54,112 bases of DNA from Reclinomonas americana ATCC 50394. Lineage: Eukaryota. Under the pieces are notes generated by a model. It saw only the letters and a list, made by a program, of their open reading frames with translations, was not told where the DNA came from and did not search any database. The translations under genes and the position numbers were made by a program. The stretch is taken from NCBI GenBank assembly GCA_048213135.1, contig PS015076.1, forward strand, positions 1 through 54,112, read 5' to 3'. Positions 16,735 to 51,973 of this stretch are shown here, one piece after another (position 1 is the stretch's first letter; every line of letters begins with the position of its first letter).

Positions 16735-19634
16735 TCATTCCGCCACCACCACCCTCCACGCCCTAAGCGACAGACCCACCAGCACCGCCACAAACGACAC
16801 CACCTCGTACCCGGGATATTTCTGTCGCAGCCCCTTCGCGTATCGCAGCACCTGCTTCTCGGCGCCCTCTGCCGCCGCGAGCACATTCGTTAACTCACCA
16901 CGACCACCAGCCACCTTGTAAGAGATGGCAGCCAGCATGGCTCTGCCTTCCTCCGTGGTGCAGTCGTCGCTGATCTGCACGAGCAGAGGATGATGTCATG
17001 ACAAAGAGAAGCCCTTTGCCCCTAACCACACACACTCACCGGCAGCTTGGCGTCAACGGCACGAATAGCTGTATCAATGGCCTTGGCCTTCGCCAGCATG
17101 GTCTCTGTCTTAGCCTCTGCCATTACCACCGCCAGATCTGTGTGCGTGTGTAAATACCGTGCGATGTGACAGTGTGTTCGCTGCGGCGGAAGACGCAACC
17201 CGAGTGAACCACATGCAGCGGCACCGCTTTGAACTCGATTACAATTATGCGCATTAGAGACTCGGAAATGATGGCCATGTCGCAGAACTGTGTCTTGGGT
17301 CGACCCTGTTGAGAAAACGATGAGGCGCGCCGCCCGAAAAGACGAGGAGGCTTGTGATCGTCGCCCACCTCCAGGCTGACATCCAGCTCGAATTCCATCT
17401 TCACCGGTGCCTTGGCCGCCGCTAGTTGCACAAAGAAGGCGTCCGTAACGTGTCGCTCCCGCAAGTGCTCCGGATTGCGTGACTGGTGCTCGCGCAGCCA
17501 CTCCTCACAGACATTGTTCAAGAGGACGATGTCGAGATTACTGGTGTGTGCGAAAGAGGGAGAGTGATCACAAACGCGAACAGGCAGGAAAAACACACAA
17601 TAAGCGCAGAGGGAGGCGGAGAAGGAGGAAGCGCCGACGGTTGAGACCTGAGAAGTGCGTTGCAGGCGGCTGGGCAGGCGCGCTGAACAAGGCGCCGCAG
17701 GATGCGGTCGCGAGTATTCTCATTTGGCACCACCAGGCCTGACGGCGGGTAAGCACGATTAAGGAGAGCAGAGATGACGGACGACGCAACTCTGGCCGTC
17801 CGGCGCAATGGTGTAGCCGCCAACGTACTGGCAGAAGCGCGCAAACATAGTCTCGTCGGCGCCAGCGACATCTTCGCCGCGGAATGGATCCACATCGTCG
17901 GGCAGTGCGACCTCACTAGACGTGGAACCGCGGAGTACGCTCAGCAAGATGGGCAGGTGTTGCGATTGCACCATCAATTGGAGGGCTGCGTCGCTAAGTT
18001 CCACGTTGGAGTAGGTAGTGCGAGGCGCTCGCTTCCCCTTCTGGACCTCCTGCAATTGCGAAAACAGTGAGTGTAATCGCTCATCATCTCCTGGTCATAC
18101 TTCACGGGAACACACCCGCATGTACGACATGACATGATCGGTGCAGTAGATGGGAATGGCACTCGGCCCATCAAAGAAGCGGAAGCCATTGTAGCGCTGG
18201 CGAATGACGGTGTGGTACATGGTCTTGTTGACGGTGGAGAGCGAGGAGCCATCACGAAGTTGCACGCGGTCCAGAAGGAGATCCACTTCGGCTTCGGTCA
18301 GACCGCACATGGCTTGTTCATCTCGTCAAACGTGCAGTCCACGCCAATGTTGAAACCGCTGGTCATGTCGTTGGTGGCCAGCGGGAGAACACTGTACGTA
18401 TATATGTATGTGTGTGTGTGTGATGGGGCGTCAGAGTTACTTCGTGCGCGTGCGTGTGACAAAAGGGGAGAGGAAGAGAGCAAACGCACCCTGTGATTAG
18501 CATGAAGGGGACGAGACCGCTCTGCACTGCGCTCTTGATGGAGGCAAACAAGCCCTTCACACCACAGTCGCTGAGCAGATTCTGGTACTTGTGTGCATCG
18601 GTGTGATCGAGGGCAGGAACGAAGGGTCGATCGGACTCGTCGACAAGGATGACGAGCTGCGGGGGTGCGGGGTTGAGTGACCGATTGCACACCAGAGCAT
18701 GGTTGGTCGCACCTTCCTGCCGACATCCCGCACAGCATCACGAATGAGCGAGAAATGGTGAACAGACGATCCACCTTCTCTTGTGGCACACCGCTCGCGC
18801 AGCTCTGGGTACTGCGCCAGGAACGGTCGGACGCACTCGTCGGAGAAGAACAGGTCAAATATGCCACGCGAAGACTGCGGCTGGGAGAGCGAGAAGTCCA
18901 GCGCAGACATATCCACCTTCAGTACGTAGTGCTGGCAAGGCAACTGCTTGCGATGCACCTCGTGGATGCGATCCACGATTTGCAGCCCCTGTGCTGTGGG
19001 AGAGAGAGAGAGAGTGAGTGCGAGAGAGAGAGAGGAGTGAGTGCGAGAGAGAGAGAGAGGAGAGAAGAGACGACGCAACAAGCGACAAGTACGGTCTGGA
19101 GTACGCGAGATACACCGACGCAGATCTCTCTCGTGCTGCCCGCGTCACTCATTCCTTCGCTGCCAGGGTCTCACTCTCTCTCTCTCTCTCTCGCCCTACT
19201 TCCACCATTGCATCTCCTCCTTCTCCTCTTCTCCGCAAGGTGCTGTACCAGGATCTTTGCTGTCGCCCTCACTCCTCTCGTACACTCATACTCACACCCA
19301 CCTGGAACAGCTGCTCAAACGCACTCTCGCCGTGCGAGACACGCCCGCTGAGCAGCCTCGCGTGCAACGCCGACACGGCTTGTTCATGCCCTTCCTCCAT
19401 GGTTGAACGGTGTGCATAGCGGCGCTTCCCGGGAGGCAGCGCATTGTTAATGTCGTGGTAGTTGGCGAGTGTGTCGAGCAGCAGGCTCTTGCCAAAGCGA
19501 CGCGGGCGCACATAGATCAAGGGTGATATGCTTGGCGGGCGAAACCACGCGAGAAGCTGCGCGGTCTTGTCTACGTAACAGAGCTCGGGTGTGCTGCGAA
19601 TGAGCGAGAAACCGTGGCCAGAGGGAGGAATCAT
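16735..19634 (-). CDS. AAA-ATPase-like domain + C-terminal PD-(D/E)XK nuclease-like protein (family mostly known from bacteria), with spliceosomal introns
   Basis: YVDKT...YVRPRRFGKSLLLDTL (Walker A), LFQ|GLQI, LVILVDESDRP (Walker B), MLITG, SGFN, CGLTEAEV, YNGFRF, LVVPNENTR, then FCDMAII...IIVIEFK and AEKQVLRY. Confidence 0.85.
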
Positions 19635-20012
19635 GCGTCCTGTGAGAGAGAGAGGAAGGCAGGGAGGGGTGAGGGGAAAGGAGTGTTGTGAGCTGATTGT
19701 TGCTCTCTCTCTTTCTCTCTCACGATGCTGCATACTCTTTCTCTCTCTCTCTCCCTCTCTCTCTCCCCTTCACTTTGCTCTCTTGCACACACACATAGAG
19801 AGAAGAGAATGAGCAATGCACCACACCTCCAACAACTGAGGCGGCATTGGTGCTGAGACACACGCGGGGAAGACGACGCTCACACGCACGCAGCATCAAT
19901 ATCGTCACCAATTCATGATCACGTGTGTTCCAATTGCCACACACACACACACAAAACCCCGACTTAAACCCGCTGTCTGTCTCTGCTTACTTCTCCATAA
20001 GACTGTCAATCC

Positions 20013-21298
20013 ATGCACGAATCCCTGCACATCCCCTGCGCCTCGGCCGCCCACCTCTGCATCGCCCCCCGGACCCTCTCTCCCCCTCTTATCATTGTCG
20101 CCGGCAACGACGAAGACGGCTGCATATTCGTATTTGATGGCGACAGTGGCCACCGATTGCACACTGAAAGGGACGCGCACCCGGGAGGCACCTATCGCGT
20201 GCACTATGACAGCGGGAAGCTGGCCTCGTGCGGATTCGATTGTTGTGTCGCACTGTGGAGTATTATCATTGACGAGGAGGAGAAGTCGTGTTTGCGACAA
20301 GAGTGGCGCTCGACTGGTTGGTGTGACTACATTCAGGGCCTGACGATGACGCACCGGCCGTTGTATGTGTTTGCCACGGCGGAGACCACGGAGATTCATG
20401 TGTATTCTGTGCAAGGAGGGGAGAAGGTGCGCGTGCAGCACGGCCACTCGCAGCACGTGAATGCGTTGGCGGTGTCGTCGTGCGATCGCGTGCTTGTCAG
20501 CGCCTCGGATGATCACAGTATGCGCACGTGGAGTGTGGAGACTGGCGCACAGTTGTGGGTGTTTCATTTTGACTCGGCTGTGCACTCGGTGGCGCTGCGG
20601 GGGACGTTGGCGGCCTGTGGCATGTGGCATGGCTGCGTGCTGGTGATTGATCTGAGCACGCACATCGAGCGACTGGTGGGCGTGCCCGACAGGGATACCT
20701 GGTGCGGCGTGTATGGCACCGCGTTTGCGGAGAAGGAGTTGCCGATTGTTGTTGCCACGACGCATGGTTCGCGCCACAGAGAGAGAAGAGAGAGATACAG
20801 CAAGACAGAGAGACAGCTCAGCTGCATTCCAGTGCCCTCCTCGCGTTGTTGCTCAACGCATGCGCGCAGATGGCTTGGTGCAAGTGTGGAACGTGGATAC
20901 GCTCCGCTTGGTGGCCAGCGACGATGCCAGCCGCGATGGTGTGCCTCAGCCCCTGTGGAGTCCAGTGATTCTCGCCGACGGTCGTCTGGCCGTCTGTCAA
21001 CTTGCGCATGGCGTGCGTGTGTTTGCGCCAGGTGAGTGTGTGGGTGGGCGCACGTAGTGCACTGCGTGTGCCACGCACCTGCTTATTGCGGAATGCAGGT
21101 CCGTGGAGCAAGCGGTGGTGTCTGGAGCAGGAGGTGGTGGCGGCGCGCGAGGCTGTGGTCGCGTTGCGGGAGGCAGAGGCGGAAAAGGAGGAGGTGGGCG
21201 AACCGCTGCCGTTGCTCGTGCTCCGCTGTTTCATGGTGGAGGAGGCGGAGGCGAATCTGTGGCGAGGAGGCGGCGTCGTTGTCGTCGTGACAGGGTGA
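20013..21298 (+). CDS. Divergent WD40-repeat protein with the shared C-terminal LRCF.VE tail; 3 exons (introns about 20767-20868 and 21032-21098); start uncertain
   Basis: LASCGFDCCVALW, GHSQHVNALAV...LVSASDDHSMRTWSV, TTH|DGLVQVWNV; tail AREAVVALRE...PLPLLVLRCFMVEEAEANLWR. Confidence 0.8.
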
Positions 21299-22008
21299 AG
21301 CACAGATGGGCGTGGCGATTCAACAACGTTGCCCGCTGGGACGCGAGGAATGGACGTGCGCTTCAGTGCCAGGTCGCCTCGGTGGTGTACCTGTTATTTG
21401 GTGCCTTCTGCCTGCTGATTCTTGCTTGCCACCGCCACAGTGGTCGGATCCGGGTCGGCCTCGTCCACAACGTTGTTCATTGCAGCGTGATCAGTGGCGG
21501 CAGCGTGACGACGGTGGGCGCACTGCAGGGCAGCTCGGCCAGTGGCAGTGTGACGACGGTGGGCACGCTGGAGACAGGCAAACGGTGGACACGCTTGAGA
21601 GCAGCTCGGTCAGCACATTCGGTGTGATCAGCCTTCGAAAGTGATTGGCATTCAGCTGCACAGCGGCGTGGTAAACAGCGTCTCAGTCAACTACATCATT
21701 TGCGATGCCGGCTGCTCATTTGTTGTCATTCCCAGCTGCAGTGCATCCTCGTCAGTTCCACTCTGGTGTGAATTGAGCTTTCCAGTCGAGTTAGACAGCA
21801 GACCCGTGGAGAAATCTCCGATCGCTCTTGCAGTTTTGACAGTTCGCAGTCGGAGAACATGCGCTTGAGTTATTGACAGTATACAGACATCGTACCGTGG
21901 CGTAGAATACCAAGCCGGGTCCTCTCTGTGCTTCGCGTGTGCGGCGAGGATCACAGTTCCCGACTTATTCGGAGCTCCGGGGGCGAATTCGAACACACAC
22001 ACACACAG

Positions 22009-22089
22009 GAAACCTGCTGCTGCCCTCAAGACTGGTATCTGTGTTGATGTTTTGGATATGGTTGGACTTGCGGTCATCAAGACAGCTGT
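22009..22089 (-). repeat. About 80-bp dispersed repeat, inverted copy of 45924-46002
   Basis: Reverse complement ACAGCTGTCTTGATGACCGCAAGTCCAACCATATCCAAAACATCAACACAGATACCAGTCTTGAGGGCAGCAGCAGGTTTC nearly equals 45924-46002. Confidence 0.9.
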
Positions 22090-26808: not shown

Positions 26809-27407
26809 ATGCCCGGTGGTCGTCTCTTTATCGAGCGCATGGAGGAAATGGAGCATGCGTGTCGGCTGAAGATGGCGCGCATGATGGATATCAGTTGCGT
26901 GGAGACAGTTGCTCTGCTCGTTGTTCTTCTTGGTAGCTGACTGCTGTCACGTGCAGCACAAATCGTCGGCAGCAACTTCAACCTGGAGGACCCGCCAGCT
27001 CCCGTGTTTTACACGATTCGTGCCGTCGGTGACGTCAACCTGTACAAGAGCGAGCGATCCGACGATTGCCGCAACCCGCAGTGGGCGCCGCTGAGTACGG
27101 CGAAGCTGCCGAAGAAACTCGGACACGCGGCGGTGGTGGAGATCGCGGTGCACAAGGGAAAGAACATGTTCTTTGACAAGATTTTGAACCTGTCGCAGCT
27201 GCGGCACCTGGACACCGAGAGAGTTGCGTCCGTCTCCTCGCGTGTGCGGANNNNNNNNNNNNNNNNNNNNTTTGTGACACACAGGTGCTGAACTTGCTTT
27301 TGATGCAGGATCGATCGGTCATCAACAAGTCGAACATGTTGATCTTCGTCATGGGAACGCAGATGTACTACTGCGATCTGACGGAGCTGCCGTCGCGGAG
27401 GTCGTAG
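26809..27407 (+). CDS. Small protein resembling the UVRAG/Vps38 N-terminal C2 domain; exons 26809-26893, 26957-27222, 27309-27407
   Basis: MMDITQIVGSNF...VFYTI...LYKSERSDDCRNPQWAPL...LNLSQLRHL...NMLIFVMGTQMYY parallels UVRAG LRNIAARNI...FYRSEVIKNSLNPTW...LDGLKYL...NEIIFGLNDGYY (recalled). Confidence 0.65.
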
Positions 27408-27710
27408 ACGGGTGCGCGTGAGAGTGGCGTGAGTGACAGGGAGGAGGAAATGAGGAGAGAAAGAGGCGTGGAAGGTTGAGTGTAACAACAGGCATCAACA
27501 GACGGAGAGGGCGGAAGGGAGGGAGCACAGGGAAGTTCAGAGACAGAGATTGAGAGCCAGAGTGGCAAGGGCGAAGGAGTACAAATGATTGGGGTGAGAG
27601 AAGGATGGAGTACTATTTGTTGATGCCAGATTGAGAGAGGCAGGTGAGAACTGGCAAATGCCGACGCCTTCAGCTTACTTCTCGGATCCAAGCCTATATG
27701 TGCTGTCTGT

Positions 27711-28087
27711 CCGAGAGTGACACTGCGCTGAAGGAGACTGCATTGCTCAGTTCATCAGCGGCAGTTGGCAGCCGTGCAACCTCTCGCAGACGGCGTGTAA
27801 CCCCCCATTTTCGTGTGCCTCGCGGATCTGGGGTCGATGATGCGTCGCCTGCAGCACTGGCGAGACAGACGGCCGGGCCACCGAGCAACAGGCGGATCAC
27901 ACCATTGTTGTGCGACGGACCACGATTGGTGCGTTTGTGTGATGTGTGATGATCATCGTGTTGTGATAGGCCTCTATCTCTCGCTGCACAGGCAGGTCAC
28001 CACCGTTGAAGAAGTGGCGGCAAAAGTGGCCAGAGGCGTTGGCGCAGGACGGCGGTCGTGCAGCGCTGGCGCGGAATGTGAGACTGA
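27711..28087 (+). pseudogene. Deleted relic (copy 0) of the array gene
   Basis: 5'-truncated, with small deletions, and a junction at 28063/28064 (GTGCAG|CGCTGGCGCGG) removing about 616 bp equivalent to 28936-29551 of copy 1. Confidence 0.85.
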
Positions 28088-28403
28088 CAGAACTCACTCG
28101 GTTTGTCGGCACTCCATCACGACTTGAGGAGGTACGAGTGAAGTTTTGTGTGTCTCTTGAGTGTTTGGAGAAGACTGCATATCTCTGGCTGCTTATGGTT
28201 GGAAACTACATTTCTATCGATATTCATTATGTGTTGCACTGCACACGGCAGCAGTGGTCTTGCATGCTCACTCACTTTTGATTGCCATGCAGGTCCAGCG
28301 GTGGCGGTGGTGGTGCGCTCTTGAAACGAAGTACAAGATCGCATTTGCTCTCCGAAATTTTGACTGTAGGCGGGCGTGGTTCTCCCGGTTTCCTTGCCTC
28401 ACG

Positions 28404-29585
28404 ATGAACGCAGCATCTGCTTCGGCGTCGCGCATTCACCAGTCGCACACCCAACGACACCGACGACGACGACGACGACGCAGCGGCACTGCGGAGGATG
28501 ATTCTCACTCATCAACGACCGCGACACCCACTTCTCACCCCGAGAGTGCCACTGCGCCGAAGGAGTCTGCATTGCTCAGTCCATCTGCGGCAGCTGGCAG
28601 CCGTGCGACCTCTCGCAGACGGCGTGCAACGCCCCACTTTCGTGTGCCTCATGGATCTGGGGTCGATGATGACGAAGTGATGCGTCGCCTGCAACACTGG
28701 CTCGAGACAGACGGCCGGGCAACCGAGCAACAGGCGGATCACACGTTTGTTGTGCGGCGGACCACGATTGGTGCGTTTGTGTGCTGGGTGAAGATCATCG
28801 TGGTGTGACAGCCACTTTTGGTTTACACAAATGGCCTCTCTCTCTCCCTCTCTCGTTGCACAGGCAAGCCACCGCCGTTGAAGAAGTGGCGACAAAAGTG
28901 GCCGGAGGCTGTCGCGCAGAATGGCGGCCGTGCAGTGGATCCACGCGAGTTGTTGCGAGGCAGCCGGTGTGCGGAGATGGATGGGCAGATTTTGGTCGCG
29001 CTTGCCAAGGAGCACATCACCGGCGTGATCAAGCCAGAACAGTTTTCAGCCGCCCTCTGTCACCTGCAACAGTCGCTGGCCAAGTGCGTGGTCGACGGCA
29101 CTGCGGTGTCTGTGGAGACTGTGCCTCTTCTGCGTGTGCTGCCGAGGAAGAGACGCGACCCGTATCGAGAACGAGCGTGTCTGCGAGTGTGGGTGGGGCC
29201 AGCGGCGGATCGAGTCGCTGTGTGTGAGACGATTGTGGCGGCCACTCCGCCTGAGGGTGTGTTGTGGATGGTGCTATGCTGTCCACCGGAGGATGCGGTG
29301 TTCTATGGCTTGCCGAGCTACGAGCCGCGCAAGTTGAGAATTGAATGGGCCGCACCAGAATGGGCCATTACCGAGTACAACGTCGACAACTTCGACTTTG
29401 ACAACTTCCTGGCAGACCCCTCTATCGGCGCGACATACGATCCAGCCTTCTTCGGTTGCGAACCATTGACCGACGCCCAGCTGATAGCTCTTGGTGTGAA
29501 ATGTCCTCTGTTGCGCAAGTTCCTCCGCACGGACTCTGGCGTCGCCGACGGCGCTGGCGCGGAATGTGGGCACTCGCATGACTGA
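28404..29585 (+). CDS. Array gene copy 1: poly-Arg/Ser-rich N-terminus, unknown core, SAM-like C-terminus; exons 28404-28770 and 28864-29585
   Basis: In-phase GTGCGT...CAG intron (TI G|GC K); tail FDNFLADPSIGATYDPAFFGCEPLTDAQLIALGVKCPLLRKFLR. Confidence 0.75.
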
Positions 29586-29942
29586 CCGATCTCTCTCGGA
29601 TTGTCGGCACCCTCGCACGACTTGAGGAGGTGTGTTCAGACGAGTGCAGTCGTGTGTCGTTGTTTGTGTCTCTTGAGTGTTTGGAGAAGATTGCACGTGG
29701 TACTTGGTGCACGGTTTGTGCTTGGTGGTGTTTGGCTCGCGGCATTGAGGGACTGCATTCCTTTCGATATTCTTGCACTGCACACAGCCACAGTGATCCT
29801 ACATGCTCACTCGCATTTGATTGCCATGCAGGTCCAGTGGTGGCGGTGGTGGTGCGCTCTTGAAACGAAGTACAAGACCACAATTGCTCTCCGAAATTTT
29901 GACTGTAGGCAAGCGTGGTTCTCCCGGTTTCCTTGCCTCACG

Positions 29943-30365
29943 ATGAACGCAGCATCTGCTTCGGCGTCACGCACGAACCAGTCGCACACCCAACGACACC
30001 GACGACGACGACGACGGAGCGGCACTGCGAAGGATGATTCTCACTCATCAACGACCGCGACACCCACTTCTCACCCCGAGAGTGCCACTGCGCCGAAGGA
30101 GTCTGCATTGCTCAGTTCATCAGCGGCAGGTGGTAGCCGTGCAACTTCTCGCAGACGGCGTGCAACGCACCACTTTCGTGTGCCTCGCGGATCTGGGGTC
30201 GATGATGACGAAGTGATGTGTCGCCTGCAACACTGGCTCGAGACAGACGGCCGGGCCACCGAGCAACAGGCGGATCGCACTTTTGTTGTGCGGCGGACCA
30301 CGATTGGTGCGTTTGTGTGTTGTGTGCAGATCATCGTGGTGAGGCAGTCACTTTTTTGTTTACAC

Positions 30366-30408
<43 letters not shown>

Positions 30409-31150
30409 CACAGGCAAGCCACCGCCGTTGAAGAAGTGGCGACAAAAGTGGTCGGAGGCGGTCGCGCAGAATGGCGGCCGTGCAGTGGATCCCCGTGAGT
30501 TGTTGCGAGGCAGCCGGTGTGCGGAGATGGATGGGCAGATGTTGATCGCTGCCGATCTTGCCGAGTACGAAGAGCGAGGTGCCGGTGGCGCGATTGATTC
30601 GCAACTGTTTTCAGCCGCCCTCTGTCACCTGCAACAGTCGCTGGCCAAGTGCGTGGTCGACGGCACTGCTGTCTCTGTGGAAACTGTGCCACCTCCGCGT
30701 GTGCTGCCGAGGAAGAGAGGCGACCCATATCGAGAACGAGTGTGTCTTCGAGTGTGGGTGGGGCCAGCGGCGGATCGAGTCGCTGTGTGTGAGACGATTC
30801 TGGCGGCTCGGCAACCGGATGGTGTGACGTGGATCGTGCTATGCTGTCCACCGGAGGATGCGGTATTCTATGGCTTGCCGAGCTACAAGCCGCGCAAGTT
30901 CGCCTTCGAATGGGCCACGCCAGAATGGGTCATTACCGAGTACAACGTCGACAACTTGGACTTGGACAACCTGCTGGCAGACCCCTCTGTCGGCGCGACG
31001 TGCAATCCAGCCGATTTCGGCTGCAAACCTATGACAGACGCCCAGCTGATTGCTGCAGGTGTGAAATGCGCTAAGCTGCGCAAGTTCCTCTGCGTGAACT
31101 TTCCCGTCGCCGACGGTGCTGGCGCGGAATGTGGGCGCTCGCGTGACTGA
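29943..31150 (+). CDS. Array gene copy 2; exons 29943-30306 and 30414-31150
   Basis: Same structure with an open frame. Confidence 0.75.
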
Positions 31151-31515
31151 CCGATCTCTCTCGGTTTGTCGGCACTCCATCACGACTTGAGGAGGTGTGT
31201 TCAGACGAGTGGAGTCTATGTCGTTGTTTGTGTCTCTTGAGTGTTTGGAGAAGATTGTACGTCTCTTGCTGCTTGTTGCACGGTTTGTACTTGGTTGTGT
31301 TTGGCTCGAGGCATTGAGGGACTGCATTTCTATCGATAACATGTGTTGCACTGCACACGGCAGCAGTGATCTTACGTGCTCACTCATCTTTGATTGTCAT
31401 GCAGGTCCAGCGTTGGCGGTGGTGGTGCGCTCTTGAAACGAAGTACAAGATCGCATTTGCTCTCCGAAATTTTGACTGTAGGCGGGCGTGGTTCTCCCGG
31501 TTTCCTTGCCTCACG

Positions 31516-32668
31516 ATGAACGCAGCATCTGCTTCGGCGTCATGCACGAACCAGTCGCGCGTCCAGCGACGACGACGACGACGACGACGAAGCGGCACTG
31601 CGGAGGATGATTCTCATTCATCAACAACTACGACACTCACCTCTCCCCCCGAGAATGCCACTGCGCCGAAGGAGTCTGCATTGCTCAGTCCATCTGCGGC
31701 AGCTGGCAGCCGTGCGACCTCTCGCAGACGGCGTGCAACGCCCCACTTTCGTGTGCCTCATGGATCTGGGGTCGATGATGACGAAGTGATGCGTCGCCTG
31801 CAACACTGGCTCGAGACAGACGGCCGGGCCACCGAGCAACAGGCGGATCGCACTTTTGTTGTGCGGCGGACCACGATTGGTGCGTTTGTGTGATGTGTGA
31901 AGATCATCGTGGTGTGACAGTCACTTTTTGTTTACACAAGTGGCCTCTCTTTCTCTCTCGCTGCACAGGCAAGCCACCGCCGTTGAAGAAGTGGCGACAA
32001 AAGTGGCCGGAGGCTGTCGCGCAGAATGGCGGCCGTGCAGTGGATCCACGCGAGTTGTTGCGAGGCAGCCGATGTGCGGAGATGGATGGGCAGATTTTGG
32101 TCGCACTTGCCAAGGAGCACGTCACCGGCGTGATCAAGCCAGAACAGTTTTCAGCCGGCCTCTGTCACCTGCAACAGTCGCTGGCCAAGTGCGTGGTCGA
32201 CGGCACTGCGGTGTCTGTGGACACTGTGCCTCTTCCGCGCGTGCTGCCGAAGAAGAAGGGCGACCCGCATCGTGAACGAGTGTGTCTGCGAGTGTGGGTG
32301 GGATCAGCAGTGGATCGAATCTCTATGTGCAAGACGATTGTGGCGGCCACTCCGCCTGAGGGTGTGTTTTGGATGGTGCTGTGCTGCCCACCGGAGGATG
32401 CGGTGTTTTTTGCTTGCCCAGCTACGAGCCGTGCAAGTTCTCCTATCATTGGGCCGCACCAGAATGGGTTATCGACGCGTATGACTTCGACAACATTGAC
32501 TTGGATATCTTGCTGGCAGACCCCTCTGTCGGCGCGACATACGATCCTGCCTTATTCGGCTGCGAACCATTGACCGACGCCCAGCTGATAGCTGCAGGTG
32601 TGAAATGTCCTCTGTTGCGCAAGTTCCTCTGCACGGACTCCGTCGTCGCCGACGGCGTTGGCGACTGA
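31516..32668 (+). pseudogene. Array gene copy 3, frameshifted near 32405-32413 (real or homopolymer error), with a shortened 3' end
   Basis: GTGTTTTTTGCTTGCCC versus TTC TAT GGC TTG / TTT TTT GGC CTG in other copies; the homologous protein continues in ORF 32369-32668. Confidence 0.6.
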
Positions 32669-33023
32669 CCGATCTCTCTCGGTTTGTCGGCAATCCATCA
32701 CGACTTGAGGAGGTGTGTTTTGACGAGTGAGTTCTGTGTCATTGTTTGTGTCTCGTGAGTGTTTGGAGAAGATTGCACGTGGTACTTGGTGCACGGTTTG
32801 TGCTTGGTGGTGTTTTGTTCGAGGCATTGAGGAACTGCATTTCTATTGATATTCTTTGCATGTTGCACTGCACACAGCAACAGTGATCATACAGCTCACT
32901 CATCTTTGACTGCCATGCAGGTCCAGCTGGTGGTGCGCTCGTGAAACGAAGTACAAGATCACATTTGCTCTCCGAAATTTTGACTGTAGGCAAGCGTGGT
33001 TCTCCCGGTTTCCTTGCCTCACG

Positions 33024-34964
33024 ATGAACGCAGCATCTGCTTCGGCGTCACGCACGAACCAGTCGCACACCCAGCGACACCGACGACGACGACGACGCAG
33101 CGGCACTGCGGAGGATGATTCTCACTCATCAACGACCGCGACACCCACCTCTCTCCCCGAGAGTGCCACTGTGTCGAAGGAGTCTGCATTGCTCAGTTCA
33201 TCAGCGGCAGCTGGCAGCCGTGCGACCTCTCGCAGACGGCGTGCAACGCCCCACTTTCGTGTGCCTCGCGGATCTGGGGTTGATGATGACGAAGTGATGT
33301 GTCGCCTGCAACACTGGCTCGAGACAGACGGCCGGGCCACCGAGCAACAGGCGGATCACACGTTTGTTGTGCGGCGGACCACGATTGGTGCGTTTGTGTG
33401 ATGTGTGAAGATCATCGTGGTGTGGCAGTCACTTTTTTGTTTACACAAGTGGTCTCCCTCTCTCTCTCTCTCTCTCTCTTCTCTCGTCNNNNNNNNNNNN
33501 NNNNNNNNNNNNNNNNNNNNNNNNNNNNNNNNNNNNNNNNNNNNNNNNNNNNNNNNNNNNNNNNNNNNNNNNNNNNNNNNNNNNNNNNNNNNNNNNNNNN
33601 NNNNNNNNNNNNNNNNNNNNNNNNNNNNNNNNNNNNNNNNNNNNNNNNNNNNNNNNNNNNNNNNNNNNNNNNNNNNNNNNNNNNNNNNNNNNNNNNNNNN
33701 NNNNNNNNNNNNNNNNNNNNNNNNNNNNNNNNNNNNNNNNNNNNNNNNNNNNNNNNNNNNNNNNNNNNNNNNNNNNNNNNNNNNNNNNNNNNNNNNNNNN
33801 NNNNNNNNNNNNNNNNNNNNNNNNNNNNNNNNNNNNNNNNNNNNNNNNNNNNNNNNNNNNNNNNNNNNNNNNNNNNNNNNNNNNNNNNNNNNNNNNNNNN
33901 NNNNNNNNNNNNNNNNNNNNNNNNNNNNNNNNNNNNNNNNNNNNNNNNNNNNNNNNNNNNNNNNNNNNNNNNNNNNNNNNNNNNNNNNNNNNNNNNNNNN
34001 NNNNNNNNNNNNNNNNNNNNNNNNNNNNNNNNNNNNNNNNNNNNNNNNNNNNNNNNNNNNNNNNNNNNNNNNNNNNNNNNNNNNNNNNNNNNNNNNNNNN
34101 NNNNNNNNNNNNNNNNNNNNNNNNNNNNNNNNNNNNNNNNNNNNNNNNNNNNNNNNNNNNNNNNNNNNNNNNNNNNNNNNNNNNNNNNNNNNNNNNNNNN
34201 NNNNNNNNNNNNNNNNNNNNNNNNNNNNNNNNNNNNNNNNNNNNNNNNNNNNNNNNNNNNNNNNNNNNNNNNNNNNNNNNNNNNNNNNNNNNNNNNNNNN
34301 NNNNNNNNNNNNNNNNNNNNNNNNNNNNNNNNNNNNNGGCAGCCGGTGTGCAGAGATGGATGCGCAGATTTTGGTCGCGCTTGCCCATGAGCGAATCACC
34401 GGCGTGATCGAGCCGCAACAGTTTTCAGCCGGTCTCTGTCACCTGCAACAGTCGCTGGCCAAGTGCGTTGTCGACGGCACTGCGGTGTCTGTGGAGACTG
34501 TGCCTCTTCTGCGTGTGCTGCCGAGGAAGAGACGCGACCCGCATCGAGAACGAGTGTGTCTGCGAGTGTGGGTGGGGCCAGCGGCGAATCGAGTCGCTGT
34601 GTGTGAGACGATTGTGGCGGCCACTCCGCCTGAGGGTGTGTTGTGGATGGTGCTGTGCTGTCCGCCGGAGGATGCGGTGTTCTATGGCTTGCCGAGCTAC
34701 AAGCCGCGCAAGTTGAGAATTGAATGGGCCGCACCGGAATGGGCCATTACCGAGTACAACGTCGACAACTTCGACTTTGACAACTTCCTGGCAGATCCCT
34801 CTATCGGCGCGACATACGATCCAGCCTTGTTCGGCTCCAAACGTTTTCCAGACGCCCAGCCGATATCTGCAGACGTGAAGAGCGCTCATCTGCACGAGCT
34901 CATCTGCACGGACTCTGGCGTCGCCGACGGCGTTGGCGCGGAATGTGGGCGCTTGCATGACTGA
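33024..34964 (+). CDS. Array gene copy 4 (spans gap 33489-34337); divergent SAM-like tail
   Basis: Exon 1 lies before the gap and GSRCAEMD...GRLHD* after it; the two halves may come from different copies. Confidence 0.65.
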
Positions 34965-35327
34965 TCGATCTCTCTCGGTTTGTCGGCACCCTCGCACGAC
35001 TTGAGGAGGTGTGTTTTGACGAGTGGAGTTTTGTGTCGTTGTTTGTGTCTCTTGAGTGTTTGGAGAAGATTGTACGTCTCTTGCTGCTTGTTGCACGGTT
35101 TGTACTTGGTTGTGTTTGGCTCGAGGCATTGAGGGACTGCATTTCTATCGATAACATGTGTTGCACTGCACACGGCAGCAGTGATCTTACGTGCTCACTC
35201 ATCTTTGATTGTCATGCAGGTCCAGCGTTGGCGGTGGTGGTGCGCTCTTGAAACGAAGTACAAGATCACATTTGCTCTCCGAAATTTTGACTGTAGGCGG
35301 GCGTGGTGCTCCCGGCTTCCTTGCCTC

Positions 35328-37212
35328 ATGATGAGCACAGCGTCTGCTTCCGTGTCGCGCACTCACCAGTCGCACGCCCAACGACACCGACGACGACGAC
35401 GACGACGACGGAGCGGCACTGCGAAGGATGATTCTCACTCAGCAACAACCACGACACCCACTTCTCACCCCGAGAATGCCACTGCGCCGAAGGAGTCTGC
35501 ATTGCTCAGTCCATCTGCGGCAGCTGGCAGCCGTGCGATCTCTCGCAGACGGCGTGCGAAACCCCATTTTCGTGTGCCTCGCGGATCTGGGGTCGATGAT
35601 GACGAAGTACTGCGTCGCCTGCAACACTGGCTCGAGACTGACGGCCGGGCCACTGAGCAACAGGCGGATCACACCTTTGTTGTGCGGCGGACCACGATTG
35701 GTGCGTTTGTGTGATGTGTGAAGATCATCGTGCTGTGGCAGTCACTTTTGGTTTACACAAGTGGCTCTCTCTCTCTCTCNNNNNNNNNNNNNNNNNNNNN
35801 NNNNNNNNNNNNNNNNNNNNNNNNNNNNNNNNNNNNNNNNNNNNNNNNNNNNNNNNNNNNNNNNNNNNNNNNNNNNNNNNNNNNNNNNNNNNNNNNNNNN
35901 NNNNNNNNNNNNNNNNNNNNNNNNNNNNNNNNNNNNNNNNNNNNNNNNNNNNNNNNNNNNNNNNNNNNNNNNNNNNNNNNNNNNNNNNNNNNNNNNNNNN
36001 NNNNNNNNNNNNNNNNNNNNNNNNNNNNNNNNNNNNNNNNNNNNNNNNNNNNNNNNNNNNNNNNNNNNNNNNNNNNNNNNNNNNNNNNNNNNNNNNNNNN
36101 NNNNNNNNNNNNNNNNNNNNNNNNNNNNNNNNNNNNNNNNNNNNNNNNNNNNNNNNNNNNNNNNNNNNNNNNNNNNNNNNNNNNNNNNNNNNNNNNNNNN
36201 NNNNNNNNNNNNNNNNNNNNNNNNNNNNNNNNNNNNNNNNNNNNNNNNNNNNNNNNNNNNNNNNNNNNNNNNNNNNNNNNNNNNNNNNNNNNNNNNNNNN
36301 NNNNNNNNNNNNNNNNNNNNNNNNNNNNNNNNNNNNNNNNNNNNNNNNNNNNNNNNNNNNNNNNNNNNNNNNNNNNNNNNNNNNNNNNNNNNNNNNNNNN
36401 NNNNNNNNNNNNNNNNNNNNNNNNNNNNNNNNNNNNNNNNNNNNNNNNNNNTCTCTCTCTCTCTCTCTCTCTGCACAGGCAAGCCACCGCCGTTGAAGAA
36501 GTGGCGACAAAAGTGGCCACAAGCGGTCGCGCAGAATGGCGGCCGTGCAGTGGATCCACGCGAGTTGTTGCGAGGCAGCCGGTGTGTGGAGATGGATGGG
36601 CAGATGCTGATCGCCCCCGATCTTGCCGAGTTCGAAGTGCGAGGTGCCGGTGGCGCGATCGATTCGCAACTGTTTTCAGCCGCCCTCTGTCGCCTGCACC
36701 AGTCGCTGGCCAAGTGCGTGCTCGGCGGCACTGCGGTGTCTGTGGAGACGGTGCCACCTCCGCGCATTCCGATCGACAAGGGCGACCCGTATCGAACACG
36801 ATCTTGTTTGCGAGTGTGGGTGGGATCAGATACGGATCGAGTCGCTGTGTGCGAGACGATTTTGGCTGCCATGCAGCCTGATGGTGTGACGTGGATGTTG
36901 CTGTGCTGTCCACCGGAGGATGCGGTGTTTTTTGGCCTGCCCAACTACAGGCCACGCAGGTTGAGCCTGGAATGGGCCACACCAGATTCGGTCATCGACA
37001 GCTATAAATTCGACAACTTCGACTTTGACAAGGTGCTGGCAGACCCCTCTGTCGGCTCGACGTACGATCCAGCCTTCTTCGGCTGCGAACCATTGACCGA
37101 CGCCCAGCTGATAGCTCTTGGTGTGAAATGTCCTCTGTTGCGCAAGTTCCTCCGCTCGGACTCTGGCGTCGCCGACGGCGCTGGCGCGGAATGTGGGCGC
37201 TCGCGTGACTGA
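35328..37212 (+). CDS. Array gene copy 5 (gap within the intron)
   Basis: Both exons open; most divergent core (RIPIDKGDPYRTRSCLRVWVG). Confidence 0.7.
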
Positions 37213-37571
37213 CCGATCTCTCTCGGATTGTCGGCACTCCATCACGACTTGAGGAGGTGTGTTCAGACGAGTGGAGTCTATGTCGTTGTTTGTGTCTCTT
37301 GAGTGTTTGACGATGACTGCACGTCTCTCGCTGCTTGTTGCGCGGTTTGTGCTTGGTTGTATTTGGTTGGAGACTACATTCCTTTCGATATTCTTTGCAT
37401 GTCGCACTGCACACAGCCACAGTGATCTTACATGCTCACTCATCTTTGACTGCCATGCAGGTCCAGCGTTGGCGGTGGTGTTGCGCTCTTGAAACGAAGT
37501 ACAAGATCACATTTGCTCTCCGAAATTTTGACTGTAGGCGGGCGTGGTGCTCCCAGTTTCCTTGCCTCACG

Positions 37572-38782
37572 ATGAGCGCAGCGTCTGCTTCCGCGTCGCG
37601 CACTCGCCAGTCGCACACCCAGCGACACCGACGACGACGACGACAGAGCGGCACTGCGGAGGATGATTCTCATTCATCTACGACCGCGACGCTCACCTCT
37701 CTCCCCGAGAGTGCCACTGCGCCGAAGGAGTCTGCATTGCTCAGTTCATCAGCGGCAGCTGGCAGCCGTGCGACTTCTCGCAGACGGCGTGCAACGCCCC
37801 ACTTTCGTGTGCCTCGCGGATCCGGGGTCGATGATGACGAAGTGATGCGTCGCCTGCAACACTGGCTTGAGGCTGACGGCCGGGCAACCGAGCAACAGGC
37901 GGATCACACCTTTGTTGTGCGGCGGACCACGATTGGTGCGTTTGTGTGCTGTGTGAAGATCATCGTGGTATGGCAGTCACCTTTGGTTTACACAAGTGGC
38001 CTCTCTCTTCCTCCCTCCCTCTCTCCCTCCCTCCCTCTCACTGCACAGGCAAGCCACCGCCGTTGAAGAAGTGGCGACAAAAGTGGCCGGAGGCGGTCGC
38101 GCAGAATGGCGGCCGTGCAGTGGATCCACGCGAGTTGTTGCGAGGCAGCCGGTGTGCGGAGATGGATGGGCAGATGCTGATCGCCCCCGATCTTGCCGAG
38201 TACGAAGTGCGAGGTGCCGGTGGTGCGATTGATTCGCAACAGTTTTCAGCCGCCCTCTGTCACCTGCAACAGTCGCTGGCCAAGTGCGTGGTCGACGGCA
38301 CTGCAGAGTCTGTGGAGACTGTGCCTCTTCCGCGCGTGCTGCCGAGGAAGAGAGGCGACCCATATCGAGAACGAGTGTGTCTTCGAGTGTGGGTGGGGCC
38401 AGCGGCGGATCGAGTCGCTGTGTGTGAGACGATTCTGGCGGCCCGGCAACCGGATGGTGTGACGTGGATCGTGCTATGCTGTCCACCGGAGGATGCGGTA
38501 TTCTATGGCCTGCCCAGCTACAAGCCGCGCAAGTTCGCCTTCGAATGGGCCACGCCAGAATGGGTCATTACCGAGTACAACGTCGACAACTTGGACTTGG
38601 ACAACCTGCTGGCAGACCCCTCTGTCGGCGCGACATACGATCCAGCCTTATTCGGCTCCAAACGTTTTCCAGACGCCCAGACGATATCTGCAGACGTGAA
38701 GAGCGCTCAGCTGTGTAAGGTCCTCTGCGATTCTGGCGTCGCCGACGGCGCTGGCGCGGAATGTGGGCGCTCGCGTGACTGA
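37572..38782 (+). CDS. Array gene copy 6; divergent SAM-like tail
   Basis: Both exons open; core like copy 2, tail like copy 4. Confidence 0.75.
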
Positions 38783-40151
38783 CCGATCTCTCTCGGATTG
38801 TCGGCAGTCCATCACGACTTCAGGAGGTGTGTTTTGACGATTGAAGTTTTGTGTCGTTGTTTGTGTCTCTTGAGTGTTTGGAGAAGATTGCACGTCTCTT
38901 GCGGTGCACGGTTTGTACTTGGTTGTGTTTGGCTCGAGGCATTGAGGGACTGCATTTCTATCGATAACATGTGTTGCACTGCACACAGCCACAGTGATCC
39001 TACATGCTCACTCATCTTTGACTGCCATGCAGGTCCAGCGTTGGCGGTGGTGGTGCGCTCTTGAAACGAAGTAGGCACAAGATCGCACTTGCTCCGACGT
39101 TTGAGCTCGATAACAGCGGCAACTTCGTCAGTTTGCCTTCAACAGGCCATTGCACCTCGCACTTTCCCTTGCTCGCACTTTACTCTCTTACCTGCATCAG
39201 AGACGCACTATTTTAGAACGTGCAACACGTGTTAACATGTTGTCCCGCTTTCGTCCTCAAACCGAGCGATTTCGGTGTTGTNNNNNNNNNNNNNNNNNNN
39301 NNNNNNNNNNNNNNNNNNNNNNNNNNNNNNNNNNNNNNNNNNNNNNNNNNNNNNNNNNNNNNNNNNNNNNNNNNNNNNNNNNNNNNNNNNNNNNNNNNNN
39401 NNNNNNNNNNNNNNNNNNNNNNNNNNNNNNNNNNNNNNNNNNNNNNNNNNNNNNNNNNNNNNNNNNNNNNNNNNNNNNNNNNNNNNNNNNNNNNNNNNNN
39501 NNNNNNNNNNNNNNNNNNNNNNNNNNNNNNNNNNNNNNNNNNNNNNNNNNNNNNNNNNNNNNNNNNNNNNNNNNNNNNNNNNNNNNNNNNNNNNNNNNNN
39601 NNNNNNNNNNNNNNNNNNNNNNNNNNNNNNNNNNNNNNNNNNNNNNNNNNNNNNNNNNNNNNNNNNNNNNNNNNNNNNNNNNNNNNNNNNNNNNNNNNNN
39701 NNNNNNNNNNNNNNNNNNNNNNNNNNNNNNNNNNNNNNNNNNNNNNNNNNNNNNNNNNNNNNNNNNNNNNNNNNNNNNNNNNNNNNNNNNNNNNNNNNNN
39801 NNNNNNNNNNNNNNNNNNNNNNNNNNNNNNNNNNNNNNNNNNNNNNNNNNNNNNNNNNNNNNNNTGGGTGCCAGCTCGCCGGCCGCCTCGTCGGCGTCAG
39901 CAGGACCACATCATTCGTCGGCCTCGGCGGCGCCCATTAGCGGCGAGCCATAACAGGAGGCAACACAGAGAGTGAGAGGAAAAAAGTGAGGCCTCGTCTC
40001 GCCTTGCTTCTCTTGCTCTCTTTTTAGTTTCTCCCCTCCTCCTCCTCTCCTTCAATTTCTTCTATACATTCACGAATAAGCGTGGCGCGGATGTCGCTCA
40101 TCCATGCGCGCATTATAAAGACAGACAGGATCATATCAAACATAGAGAGAA

Positions 40152-44425: not shown

Positions 44426-44743
44426 TTGTATGCGAAAAAAAACACTCACAAGTAGTAAAAAAATTGCGAAAAATTCTCACGCGACGTTCCTCTTACTACG
44501 GGTTTCTGCACAGCAGCTGTGTGTACAAGAGTGTGCTTACAAAGTACATAAGCACGACGATCAATTGTGAAACAGAGCACAGGTGGAAACAAGCTTGCAT
44601 GTTGCGAAGTCGATTGATATCGATCGCGATATCGTAAATGGCCATGGCTTGCACCATGAGTGCGCTCTCACAGCTTGCAGTCTCCACCAAGGAACGACGT
44701 CCCGACAAGACAAGGCAACAGGACGCACTTGTCTTAAGCTTTC

Positions 44744-45799
44744 ATGCAACGATTCCGCGGTCACACCGACCGGATTGTATCGCTGGCTGTGACCCGCGAC
44801 GAGCAGTTCATTGTCACAGGCAGCCACGACGCGACTGTGCGTGTGTGGTTGCTGGCAAGTGGCGAGCAACTGCACTGCTTGTGTGGTCACACGGATCGCG
44901 TGCAGGCAGTGGCACTGACACCGAGTGATCGGCATGTGGTGTCGGGCAGTGCGGATGCCACGGTGCGAGTGTGGTCGCTGAAGAGTGGGACGGAGGTGCG
45001 TCGACTGGAGGGCCACACTGGCGTTGTGAGTGGTGTGGCGGTGACCACTGATGGCACGTGCGCGGTGTCGAGCAGTGACGACTGCACGGTGCGAGTGTGG
45101 GCGCTGAAGAGTGGCAAGGAGGTGCGTCGGTTTGCGGGTCACACGGCTGCTGTGACGTGTGTGGCGGTGTGCCCCGACGGGCAGCACGTGGTCACGGGGA
45201 GTGAGGACAAGACGGTGCGCGTGTGGTCACTGGCGAGTGGCGAGGAGATGCGGCTGTTGACTGGCTGTCAAGGCACCGTGCGCTCAGTGGCGGTGTCGCC
45301 CGACGGGCAATTCGTGGTCTCTGGCGATATCTACCAGGTGGTGCGCATGTGGTCGCTGGCCACCGGGCAGCAGCTGCACTGCATGAGCGAGCATCTGGCG
45401 ATGGTGTGCTCGGTGGCGGTGACCGCCGACAGCATGTTCATTGTGTCGTGCTCGTGGGACGGCACAGTGCAGGTGTGGTCGGCGGCCAGTGGACACCGAG
45501 TGCTGCGGCTGGTGAATGACAGAGGCGGAGTGCTCTCAGTGGCCACGACACGCACCGGTCGCTATATTGTCGCTGGCGTCGTCGTCGACAGTTGCGTGCG
45601 CCTGTGGCCGACGCACTACGGTCTCGCGTGCGAAGAACTGCAGTGCGCCGAGGCCGCCCTGGAGGCGGTGCACGAACTCCAGCAACGCCAGCGTGCCGCC
45701 AAGCACCCGCGATGCCTGGTGGAGATTGCACTGCGCTGCTTCATTGTCGAGGACGCGCAGGTTATCGCCCATCGATATGCCAGTGTGCCGATGTTCTGA
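44744..45799 (+). CDS. Intronless WD40 protein (7 similar repeats) with the LRCF.VEDA tail
   Basis: 351-aa ORF with GH..V..VAV.PDG..VVSGS.D.TVRVWSL repeats; tail HPRCLVEIALRCFIVEDAQVIAHRY. Confidence 0.92.
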   Translation: MQRFRGHTDRIVSLAVTRDEQFIVTGSHDATVRVWLLASGEQLHCLCGHTDRVQAVALTPSDRHVVSGSADATVRVWSLKSGTEVRRLEGHTGVVSGVAVTTDGTCAVSSSDDCTVRVWALKSGKEVRRFAGHTAAVTCVAVCPDGQHVVTGSEDKTVRVWSLASGEEMRLLTGCQGTVRSVAVSPDGQFVVSGDIYQVVRMWSLATGQQLHCMSEHLAMVCSVAVTADSMFIVSCSWDGTVQVWSAASGHRVLRLVNDRGGVLSVATTRTGRYIVAGVVVDSCVRLWPTHYGLACEELQCAEAALEAVHELQQRQRAAKHPRCLVEIALRCFIVEDAQVIAHRYASVPMF

Positions 45800-45923
45800 C
45801 CACAACACGAGCATTCGCGGTGGTTTCTCTTGCAGAAACGCTAGCGTTTGGCATGGACTTCAGCGCGCTGCAGCTGTGTTGCTGTTTGGACAACAACAGC
45901 TCATTCAGATCATTCATAAAGCA

Positions 45924-46002
45924 ACAGCTGTCTTGATGACCAAGTCCAACCATATCCAAAACATCAACACAAACACCAGTCTTGAGGGCAGCAGCAGGTT
46001 TC
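45924..46002 (+). repeat. About 80-bp dispersed repeat, inverted copy of 22009-22089
   Basis: Direct sequence comparison. Confidence 0.9.
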
Positions 46003-46257
46003 TTTGGTGTGTGTTTTGCTCTCATGTGAACAAGTCGCGATCGAGAACTGCAATCTTGAAGTTTGTACATGTTGTTGTTGCATTCGCGACGTCGCAAGGC
46101 ACACAAGTTCATGGTTCATCTGCACGGCATGCACCTGCTGCCCCACTGACACCCTTGAATGGGCTTTCATGCATGCGACGTCCATTTCTCCGATGTCCTC
46201 TTCGTCTTCTCCCCTTCGTTCCACCTTCCCTTCTCCCTTTCCCTCCCCGCGCACCCC

Positions 46258-47249
46258 ATGGAATCCGAGTACCTTCGCTCTCTCTTCTCGCTCACTGGCA
46301 AACGCGCGGTGGTGACGGGCGGTGGCAAGGGCGTGGGCGCCATGATCGCCCGCGGACTTGCACACGCCGGCTGCGCGCGCGTCTACGTGTGCTCCCGCGA
46401 TGCAGCCTCGTGCGAGGCCTTTGCCAAGGAAATCAACGCCGAGAAAGGGTGCGTCTCACAGAAAGAAAGAGAATGCAGACTCTCACTCACTCACACTCTG
46501 TCAATGTGCAGTGTGGCCAAGGACTGTGTGGTGGGCTTGGAGGCCAACCTGAGCGACGAGGCCGGCTGCAAGGCGTTTGTGAGCACACTGCGCAGCAAGT
46601 ACAACGAGACTGCATTGCACATTTTGGTCAACAACTCGGGGGCGAACTGGGGCTCCACCATTGAGGAGTACCCCGAGTCGGCGTGGGATAAGGTGATGGC
46701 GTTGAACGTGAAGGGAGTGTTCATGCTGACGCGACTGCTGCTGCCGCTGCTGGAGGAGGCGAGTCAGGAGAAGGACGCACAGGGGGCCACGGGATACGAG
46801 AGCGGCTGTTCACCGGCGCGCGTAATCAACATTGGCAGCGTGCAGGGCGAGGTGCCGCCGATGTTGGAGACGTATGCGTACAGTGCAAGCAAGGCCGCGG
46901 TGCATCACTTGACGAGAGTGCTGGCGTCGCAGCTGGCGCGTCGTCACGTGACGGTCAATGCGTTGGCACTTGGGCCGTTCGAGTCCAAGATGATGGCGGT
47001 GTGTCATCCTCGTTCGTTGCTCCGGCATCTCGCTCTCTCTGCTGTGCTCGTCTCATCATCGCTGGCGGCGCGCAGGCCACGTTGAAGCGATACAAGGACA
47101 CGATTGTGCAAAACATCCCTCTCGGTCGTATCGGATCGCCCGACGATGTCGCCGGTGTGTGCACCTACCTGTGCTCTCGCGCTGGCGAGTATGTCAGCGG
47201 TGCGATCATTCCTGTCGAGGGCGCCTACATGGTGCAAGCGAAGCTGTGA
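46258..47249 (+). CDS. Classical short-chain dehydrogenase/reductase, RhlG-like; 3 exons
   Basis: LFSLTGKRAVVTGGGKGVG, ILVNNSGANWG, RVINIGSVQG, YAYSASKAAVHHLT, VNALALGPFESKM, IPLGRIGSPDDVAG. Confidence 0.92.
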
Positions 47250-47338
47250 CGCGACCAAGTGTACACGAAACGCTCGTCCACTATGTACATTTCTTGCGAG
47301 ACACAGAGCGATCCAGTCAGTGCGTGTGGTGGCGCCGA

Positions 47339-47907
47339 CTACGCCTCCACATCGCCACGAGTGAGCAAGTCCCCGAACTCGGGGTGCGACGGCATGAACT
47401 GGTGGTGCGCACAAAGACAAGAGAATGGTCAGTCAGTCAAGATTCCACTCTGGCGGCGGCACCATGACTGACCTTGTCGCGAATGTACGTGCTGTGCCAG
47501 CCACACACCACGCAACAGCGCGCATTGTTAATCACGCAGCAGAGGGGAAGGGGGGCGGTGAGACTCACCAGGTGACGACGATCTTCTGCCATCCGGCCGC
47601 CTGGAAGTATCGCACTCCAGCCTAACAAACACAGTCATCCAACAGAATCTCTCTCTCTCCCTTCTTCCCCTCTTCAACCTGCAGCTTACCTCGACAAGGA
47701 AGTCGGCCAGGCCCTGCCCACGAAACTCCGAATCGACCTCCACGTGTGACAGCTCGACAAACTTCTCCTGCCCGGCGCGATCGTGCGAGACGAACTGCAG
47801 GTGGCCGATCACACGCCCGCCCTCCCCAGCCACGCGCACAAGCATGCGTTCCGCGTGCGACACGGGGATTGGTTGCTCACCTGATACGTGAGATCGATGA
47901 GCATGAG

Positions 47908-47949
<42 letters not shown>

Positions 47950-48033
47950 GCTCGCACACACACCAAGGCGCAGCTCCAGGCTCTGTGCGTTCGAGCTCTC
48001 TTGCACCCAGCAGCGGTCGAGAATGCCACTCAT
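47339..48033 (-). CDS. Small GNAT protein of the NATD1/YjdJ (Acetyltransf_CG) type; multi-exon; start uncertain
   Basis: ELSHVEVDSEFRGQGLADFLVE|AGVRYF...KIVVT|.TYIRDK|FMPSHPEF. Confidence 0.8.
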
Positions 48034-48188
48034 CGTGTCTATTGCTCACAGGTGGCGCGGAAAGTGAAGGGTGGTGGTGTCGATCGATGAAATGACTTTG
48101 GTTCACTACACTTTGTCTCGTTTCTCCGGCCGTGTAAGACATGAAGTTTAATCTGCAGCAAGAGCAATCTTTATGCGCAACAGCGGAA

Positions 48189-49271: not shown

Positions 49272-49621
49272 GCTGGGTGGAAGAAGGTGAGGGCGAGAGA
49301 GAAACGAAGAGGATGCGTGGTGCGCGCTTGCGAAGTGTCTGTGTGTGCGTGTGTGATTGGGACGAAGGGACGTCATCAGAAGTCTCCTCTCCTGGCTGCC
49401 ATTCTCGTCTGTGCTATCGCCGCTGCACCTTCTTTCGAGCAGATTCTCCTTTACCCACTGGCTTGCATTTCACAGGAACGCTGTCCACCTTCAAAGTCAA
49501 ATGTCGGTAGTCACGATATCGAAGTGACGACACTTCACTCTCCCCAAGCAACAATGTACTGCACGCACACACAACAAAAGAACTCTAGCACACTGACTCC
49601 AACAGCATCCCCACTCAAACA

Positions 49622-50695: not shown

Positions 50696-50981
50696 GAAGA
50701 GGGAGGCTATGAGAGATGGAGGATGGTGGAGGAAGAAACGAAGGGGATGGATGGTGTGCGCTGCGCGTTCTGCGAGGCGTGTGTGTGTGAGGAGGACGAA
50801 GGGACGTCAACAAAAGTTTCCTCGTCCTTGTCGTCTCTGCTGGAGTCGACACTGCTGACTTGGAAAGGTAATGACGTCCACCTTCAACACCAAACGTCAA
50901 CACGGAAGACGCTGCATCATGGCCATAGTACACTTCTGCTTCAAGAAAAACAAAGCGACAGAACATCTCTGGCACCAAACT

Positions 50982-51899: not shown

Positions 51900-51973
51900 T
51901 GAAGAAGTCCAACAAGGACAGTTGCAGGCTCGCGCGGCCGAACCTCTGTCCACTTTCACATCACACTTTCATA

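Follow-up and report, generated by a model that had tools for sequence, protein, structure and literature searches.

Layout of the array and structure of its genes

The DNA analyzed here, which we refer to as the window, is a stretch of 54,112 nucleotides from Reclinomonas americana ATCC 50394 (contig C68 of an assembly of 108 Mb in 16,441 contigs). Microsatellites and genes rich in introns mark the DNA as eukaryotic. On its forward strand lies a tandem gene array, which consists of a degenerate leading copy, six head-to-tail paralogous units of about 1.55 kb (~1.5-1.57 kb), and a trailing stub. The initial annotation had described the copies at 28404..38782 as mosaics of interchangeable segments; at 27703-39094, the whole array exceeds these coordinates.

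Each unit contains one gene of two exons and ~360 codons: the first exon, with the ATG, is 121-122 codons long and the second ~240 codons, and the phase-1 intron between them (GT-AG, 89-113 nt) contains a CT microsatellite. The reading frame, together with the GT and AG signals, suggests that the array genes are spliced in this way. Exon 2 can be divided into a body, with segments A, B and C, and a tail of ~40 codons. The motifs previously listed for these segments are all present in the copies to which they had been assigned, with four types of C and three types of tail, and segment A is indeed short in copies 1, 3 and 4 and five codons longer in copies 2, 5 and 6.

Copy 1 (28404..29585) comprises exon 1 at 28404-28770, a GT-AG phase-1 intron at 28771-28863 and exon 2 at 28864-29585; it has a short A, the C type KLRIEW and the tail GCEPL, with the junction between body and tail near 29435-29458. 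Copy 2 (29943..31150; exon 1 29943-30306, exon 2 30414-31150) has a long A, KFAFEW and the tail GCKPM. Copy 3 (31516..32668; exon 1 31516-31879, exon 2 from 31969) has a short A, KFSYHW and the tail GCEPL; a frameshift of one base, next to a run of T near 32412, puts the C and tail motifs of this copy out of frame and points either to a pseudogene or to an error in sequencing. Copy 4 (33024..34964; exon 1 33024-33387, visible exon 2 34338-34964) has a short A, KLRIEW and the tail GSKRF, and copy 5 (35331..37212; exon 1 35331-35700, exon 2 36479-37212) a long A, RLSLEW and the tail GCEPL. Both are interrupted at the CT microsatellite of the intron by a run of N, of 849 nt in copy 4 (33489-34337) and of 672 nt in copy 5 (35780-36451). 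Finally, copy 6 (37572..38782; exon 1 37572-37935, exon 2 38049-38782) has a long A, KFAFEW and the tail GSKRF, with the junction between body and tail at 38624-38635.

The leading copy (27703..28089) consists of the frameshifted 3' part of exon 1, the intron and the start of exon 2, joined via a large deletion to the unit end. On contig C9461, whose left flank is common with that of the window (97%), an undeleted exon 2 is found at this place. The trailing stub (38783..39094) contains spacer and the start of a conserved block that in complete units precedes the gene, and it is also present on the syntenic contig C620 (348/375 aligned bases identical). This block, 117 nt long and located at 28287..28403 upstream of the ATG of copy 1, has a p-distance of 0.055, versus 0.145 in the spacer; in most copies it is open in the frame of exon 1, adding 39 codons, and in two it is frameshifted. 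About 50 nt are also conserved past the stop codon (29586-29832 and the equivalent place in every unit), ending at a donor-like site, and an acceptor-like site is found ahead of the 117-nt block. This pair of sites between copies may delimit an intron in the untranslated leader of the next copy.

Copies of the family also occur elsewhere in the genome. A search with exon 2 gave 30 matches on 12 contigs, and a search with exon 1 added two contigs, so that the family is present on at least 13 contigs besides that of the window. The right flank of the array on C620 is common with that of the window (92-96%), and the flanks on C276 and C365 are 95-98% alike; C620 and C9461 versus the window, and C276 versus C365, appear to represent two loci in the form of haplotypes or closely related strains. 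The copy content differs among syntenic contigs: on C620, a copy of the copy-4 type lies directly ahead of one of the copy-6 type. Additional copies are found on C619 and C621. The end of C619 and the start of C620 fall within the same CGA repeat of exon 1, and the two arrays may thus be one; the 14 kb upstream on C619 show no match to the left flank of the window. The array on C276 (L019:4554-4992) contains a far more divergent member, with 55% identity and a different, longer C-terminus.

Three types of evidence bear on the coding status of these copies. Firstly, across 27 aligned units, 9 of 11 regions showed a lower ratio of amino-acid to silent variants (omega) in the predicted frame than in any of the other five; one region gave a tie, and in the last 44 codons the predicted frame was not the lowest. 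Secondly, in the same units the indels in exons are multiples of three, the exceptions being the frameshift of copy 3 and, in one further copy, two indels that compensate each other. Thirdly, codon models applied to nine sequences gave an omega of 0.18 for a 75-codon core that spans the intron, which in copy 1 (28638..28958) corresponds to the last ~44 codons of exon 1 and the first ~31 of exon 2. The best-fit omega of the other segments was 0.3-0.7, with the values of A, of the part of B termed B1 and of the tail not distinguishable from 1. Therefore, we conclude that the gene is genuinely coding, its N-terminal module being constrained and the rest only loosely so. The broken leading copy, the frameshifted copy 3, the near-neutral tail and a single repeat in one tail type that resembles a leucine-rich repeat (LRR) would also fit a remnant of an amplified gene (a truncated LRR or enzyme gene, for instance) that decays while the turnover of the repeats carries it along. 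The strong constraint on the core, the open frame in 17 of 18 exon-2 copies and the lack of a parent gene outside the family among the 30 and 24 own-genome matches argue against this view, and we regard it as highly improbable.

Recombination between the copies

Exon 2 is 78-93% identical among the six copies of the window, and several lines of evidence show that these differences are not partitioned along a single history. The pairwise homoplasy index (PHI) of the six copies, based on 104 informative sites, was 0.225, as compared with a mean of 0.408 after permutation, and none of 2000 permutations reached the observed value; the same analysis of 18 exon-2 copies gave 0/1000. A significant shared identical tract (Bonferroni p <= 0.01) was present in 4 of the 15 pairs of copies in the window. 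Furthermore, the two composite copies proposed in the initial annotation were borne out. Copy 6, described as the body of copy 2 with the tail of copy 4, agrees, to the left of the junction, with copy 2 at 63 of 70 diagnostic sites and, to its right, with copy 4 at 23 of 30 (0/1000 permutations), although its tail and that of copy 4 are just 89% identical. Copy 1, described as the body of copy 4 with the tail of copy 5, follows copy 4 at 91 of 103 sites and then copy 5 at 29 of 31 (0/1000 permutations), and its tail is 98% identical to that of copy 5. In both cases, the exchange may have gone in either direction.

The exchange extends to non-coding DNA: the spacer is also mosaic (PHI 0/1000), and copies 3 and 5 have 234 identical bases in common, with one spacer bin 100% identical. 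In four tested triplets, which perhaps represent three events, the junction maps to alignment columns 481-515, just ahead of the tail, and other junctions lie elsewhere; the correlation between left and right distances falls to 0.17-0.26 before the tail and to 0.21 after segment A. Taken together, recombination or gene conversion between the copies of the array is well supported, and the earlier proposal is upheld in this respect.

Mosaics of this kind could also be produced in silico, if collapsed repeats or haplotypes had been stitched into chimeric copies. The fragmentation of the assembly, the two haplotype-like versions of loci and the many small contigs with single copies are in line with such an artefact, as are the N gaps in copies 4 and 5, which are far longer than the missing sequence; owing to these gaps, the two halves of each of these copies need not be one physical copy. 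However, both exon-2 junctions lie in gap-free sequence, where the intervals between the diagnostic sites at the junctions span only 10 and 14 nt, and nowhere do the parent-like pairs have more than 35 and 24 identical bases in common. In addition, the junction of copy 6 recurs on the syntenic contig C620 in a copy that has 9 bases of its own, each of the 8 pieces of the array in the window carries 2-22 bases that are found in none of the other 26 units, and six of the segment combinations were each seen 2-3 times. We therefore consider an assembly artefact very unlikely, and the mosaics probably exist in real chromosomes.

Protein identity, selection and origin of the mosaic

No credible homologue of the encoded protein was found: there was no match in Pfam, PHROGs or PADLOC, and the single NCBIfam row was at chance level (E 0.11). 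The catalytic domain of PARP12 (PDB 8xpx, 6v3w and 2pqf) gave a match of 28-29 residues at the start of exon 2 (E 0.11-1.4), and further motifs, judged by eye, come in the right order. Two findings speak against this assignment. Firstly, in the only aligned stretch an Arg occupies the position of the catalytic His of PARP12, and the other two positions of the triad could not be reliably placed; passages of PMC2964712 use the H-Y-E triad, or accepted variants of it, as a criterion for PARPs. Secondly, the spliced protein scored no higher than shuffled sequences against four PARP profiles (hhalign probability <= 0.3%, with 16/60 and 18/60 shuffles as high; hmmsearch p 0.3-1), and PF00644, the Pfam family for PARP, gave no match. 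The R. americana genome itself holds, besides PARP1 types, several short intron-containing PARP-like genes (L039, L040, L042, L044, L045), two of which form an inverted pair on C88 and one of which is tankyrase-like, with a Cys following the His.

The tail of the GCEPL type matches one cysteine-type LRR of FBXL2 (PDB 6o60), with an E value of 1.7e-5 for the whole sequence and of 0.39 for the best single stretch. Its LRR-like repeat also matches protein P0004, and the score of an LRR profile is circular, since the profile was built from a protein picked as a match. An F-box/LRR identity was rejected: several tandem LRRs are required and one repeat is present, only in the GCEPL and GCKPM tails; it is absent from the GSKRF tail type and from the divergent copy on C276, and no F-box was detected. 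The resemblance to SAM was weaker: a profile built from five own-genome SAM pieces gave, against the tail, scores that 21-41 of 3000 shuffles equalled for the best copies and that were at chance for the others (hhalign E 0.28). Structure models were of low confidence (mean pLDDT 35.5 and 34.4), and the fold searches were uninformative. The constrained core has a pattern that, by eye, we take to resemble BRCT; against a profile built from 12 BRCT pieces of the same genome, scores as high were reached by 127-282 of 3000 shuffles, and by 6 of 60 in hhalign. We consider it somewhat more probable that the fold goes unrecognised than that the BRCT or the PARP assignment holds. Our best guess is an intracellular interaction or adaptor protein, probably nuclear in view of its Arg run, in which an N-terminal module of ~75 residues is constrained and the C-terminal part loosely so.

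The initial annotation had further suggested that recombination generates combinatorial variants, as in immune or effector loci. The first part of this suggestion goes too far. Among 18 exon-2 copies, in which alleles were probably counted twice, there are 8 combinations by motif and 9 by clustering, and segments A, B and C show strong mutual association (p 0.0002, 0/5000 and 0.0008). All 7 copies with a long A have a B of the QPD type and a C of the KFAFEW or LSLEW type, and 10 of the 11 with a short A carry the other set. The tail, on the other hand, shows no significant association with A (p 0.11) or B (p 0.12) and a weak one with C (p 0.03). Thus, A, B and C move together and it is mainly the tail that is swapped; the segments do not assort freely.

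As to the second part, an adaptive diversification system (immune, self/non-self or effector), in which combinations of body and tail modules are kept by balancing selection, would account for the deeply divergent segment types that coexist and recur at different loci, for the clustering of junctions ahead of the tail, for the omega values of A, B1 and the tail, and for the higher p-distance of exon 2 beyond the core (0.127) as compared with the intron (0.072). Yet no segment had an omega above 1 in the codon models, and with separate trees for six segments a three-class model (M2a) was not significantly better than a neutral two-class model (M1a; 2dL 3.2, 2 degrees of freedom), no site exceeding a posterior of 0.95. 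Moreover, A, B and C are linked, the spacer is equally mosaic, databases gave no match, and by inspection exon 1, which is rich in Ser, Ala and Arg and begins with a basic Arg run, contains no hydrophobic leader. We therefore consider such a system unlikely, and the analogy with immune or effector loci finds no support here. A more specific version, a defence or conflict system of a protist in which a degenerate ADP-ribosyltransferase-fold or BRCT-led body with variable loops would acquire new specificities by swapping a C-terminal interaction module at a favoured junction, appears quite improbable. Were the body an enzyme fold and the swaps between body and tail selected, the array would point towards a defence repertoire fed by recombination in a protist; under the module-swapping reading, it would be a stand-alone repertoire in a single-celled eukaryote.

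We favour, as the likely explanation, an ordinary lineage-specific orphan array under gene conversion and unequal crossing-over. A lineage-specific two-exon protein-coding gene would have multiplied at several loci to form head-to-tail arrays, where misaligned copies would trade DNA via these two processes. Such exchange would keep the 5' part of the unit (exon 1, the intron and the start of exon 2) alike across copies and would patch together old divergent versions of its 3' part, the junctions being visible where a short conserved stretch separates divergent blocks, mostly right ahead of the tail. The mosaic pattern may then be the outcome of untargeted conversion whose junctions are visible only between divergent blocks. 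Some observations weigh against this explanation. The PHI of exon 1 and the upstream block alone was not significant (64/1000). With about 12-14 distinct sequences for each segment, the site test is of low power, and simple pairwise counting gave a pN/pS ratio of 1.4 in one 15-codon stretch of segment A and of 1.02 and 1.14 in the last two stretches. The clustering of junctions before the tail could reflect selection for module swapping. Finally, the core might be BRCT-like, which is doubtful, or the protein might contain a degenerate PARP-like domain, which is unlikely, neither having received significant support in the comparisons above.

Arrays with such properties have been described in other organisms. 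In passages of Jackson 2007 (PMC1855330), chimaeric copies are reported in 21 of 47 tandem arrays of Trypanosoma brucei, which, like the array studied here, contain head-to-tail paralogues and regions with inconsistent phylogenies, conversion both removing and introducing variation. Unlike those, the genes described here have an intron and belong to an orphan family, with no outgroup species for a test of concerted evolution. The Sp185/333 immune genes of the purple sea urchin, as portrayed in parts of PMC3342357, are likewise clustered two-exon genes with a mosaic second exon and microsatellites at the locus, and their diversity is ascribed there to conversion and unequal crossover. According to the same passages, however, exon 1 of Sp185/333 encodes a leader, whereas here it comprises 121 codons with a basic run; the variation there consists of the presence or absence of 25-27 elements in 31-51 patterns, and here of homologous alleles in 8-9 combinations; GA microsatellites flank those genes, and here a CT repeat lies within the intron; and the expression of Sp185/333 follows microbial exposure. 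Such mosaics are common in tandem arrays, and the array in the window offers a clear case of mosaicism driven by conversion among orphan genes, with syntenic contigs that vary in copy content.

Neighbouring features in the window

To the right of the array, a cluster of WD40 genes with 126-bp repeats is present on both strands (44738-51970); two of the genes match Pfam WD40, and the members of the cluster are 65-73% alike. The cluster is also found on the syntenic contig C620 and beside the copy of the array family on C621. Just left of the array, the translation of a short gene (26941-27410) is reminiscent of the C2 region of UVRAG; it gave no match in Pfam. A reading frame on the reverse strand (19272-19769) matches the Pfam family AAA-ATPase_like (PF09820; E 2e-9), which is mainly bacterial, and adjoins a divergent WD40 gene (20001-21032). 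Further to the left, a 90-bp tandem repeat (8453-8790; 3.8 copies, 91% matches) precedes a gene that we take to encode a biotin carboxylase. Lastly, a dispersed element of 93 nt occurs twice in opposite orientation, at 21997-22089 and 45924-46014, the two copies being 92% identical.

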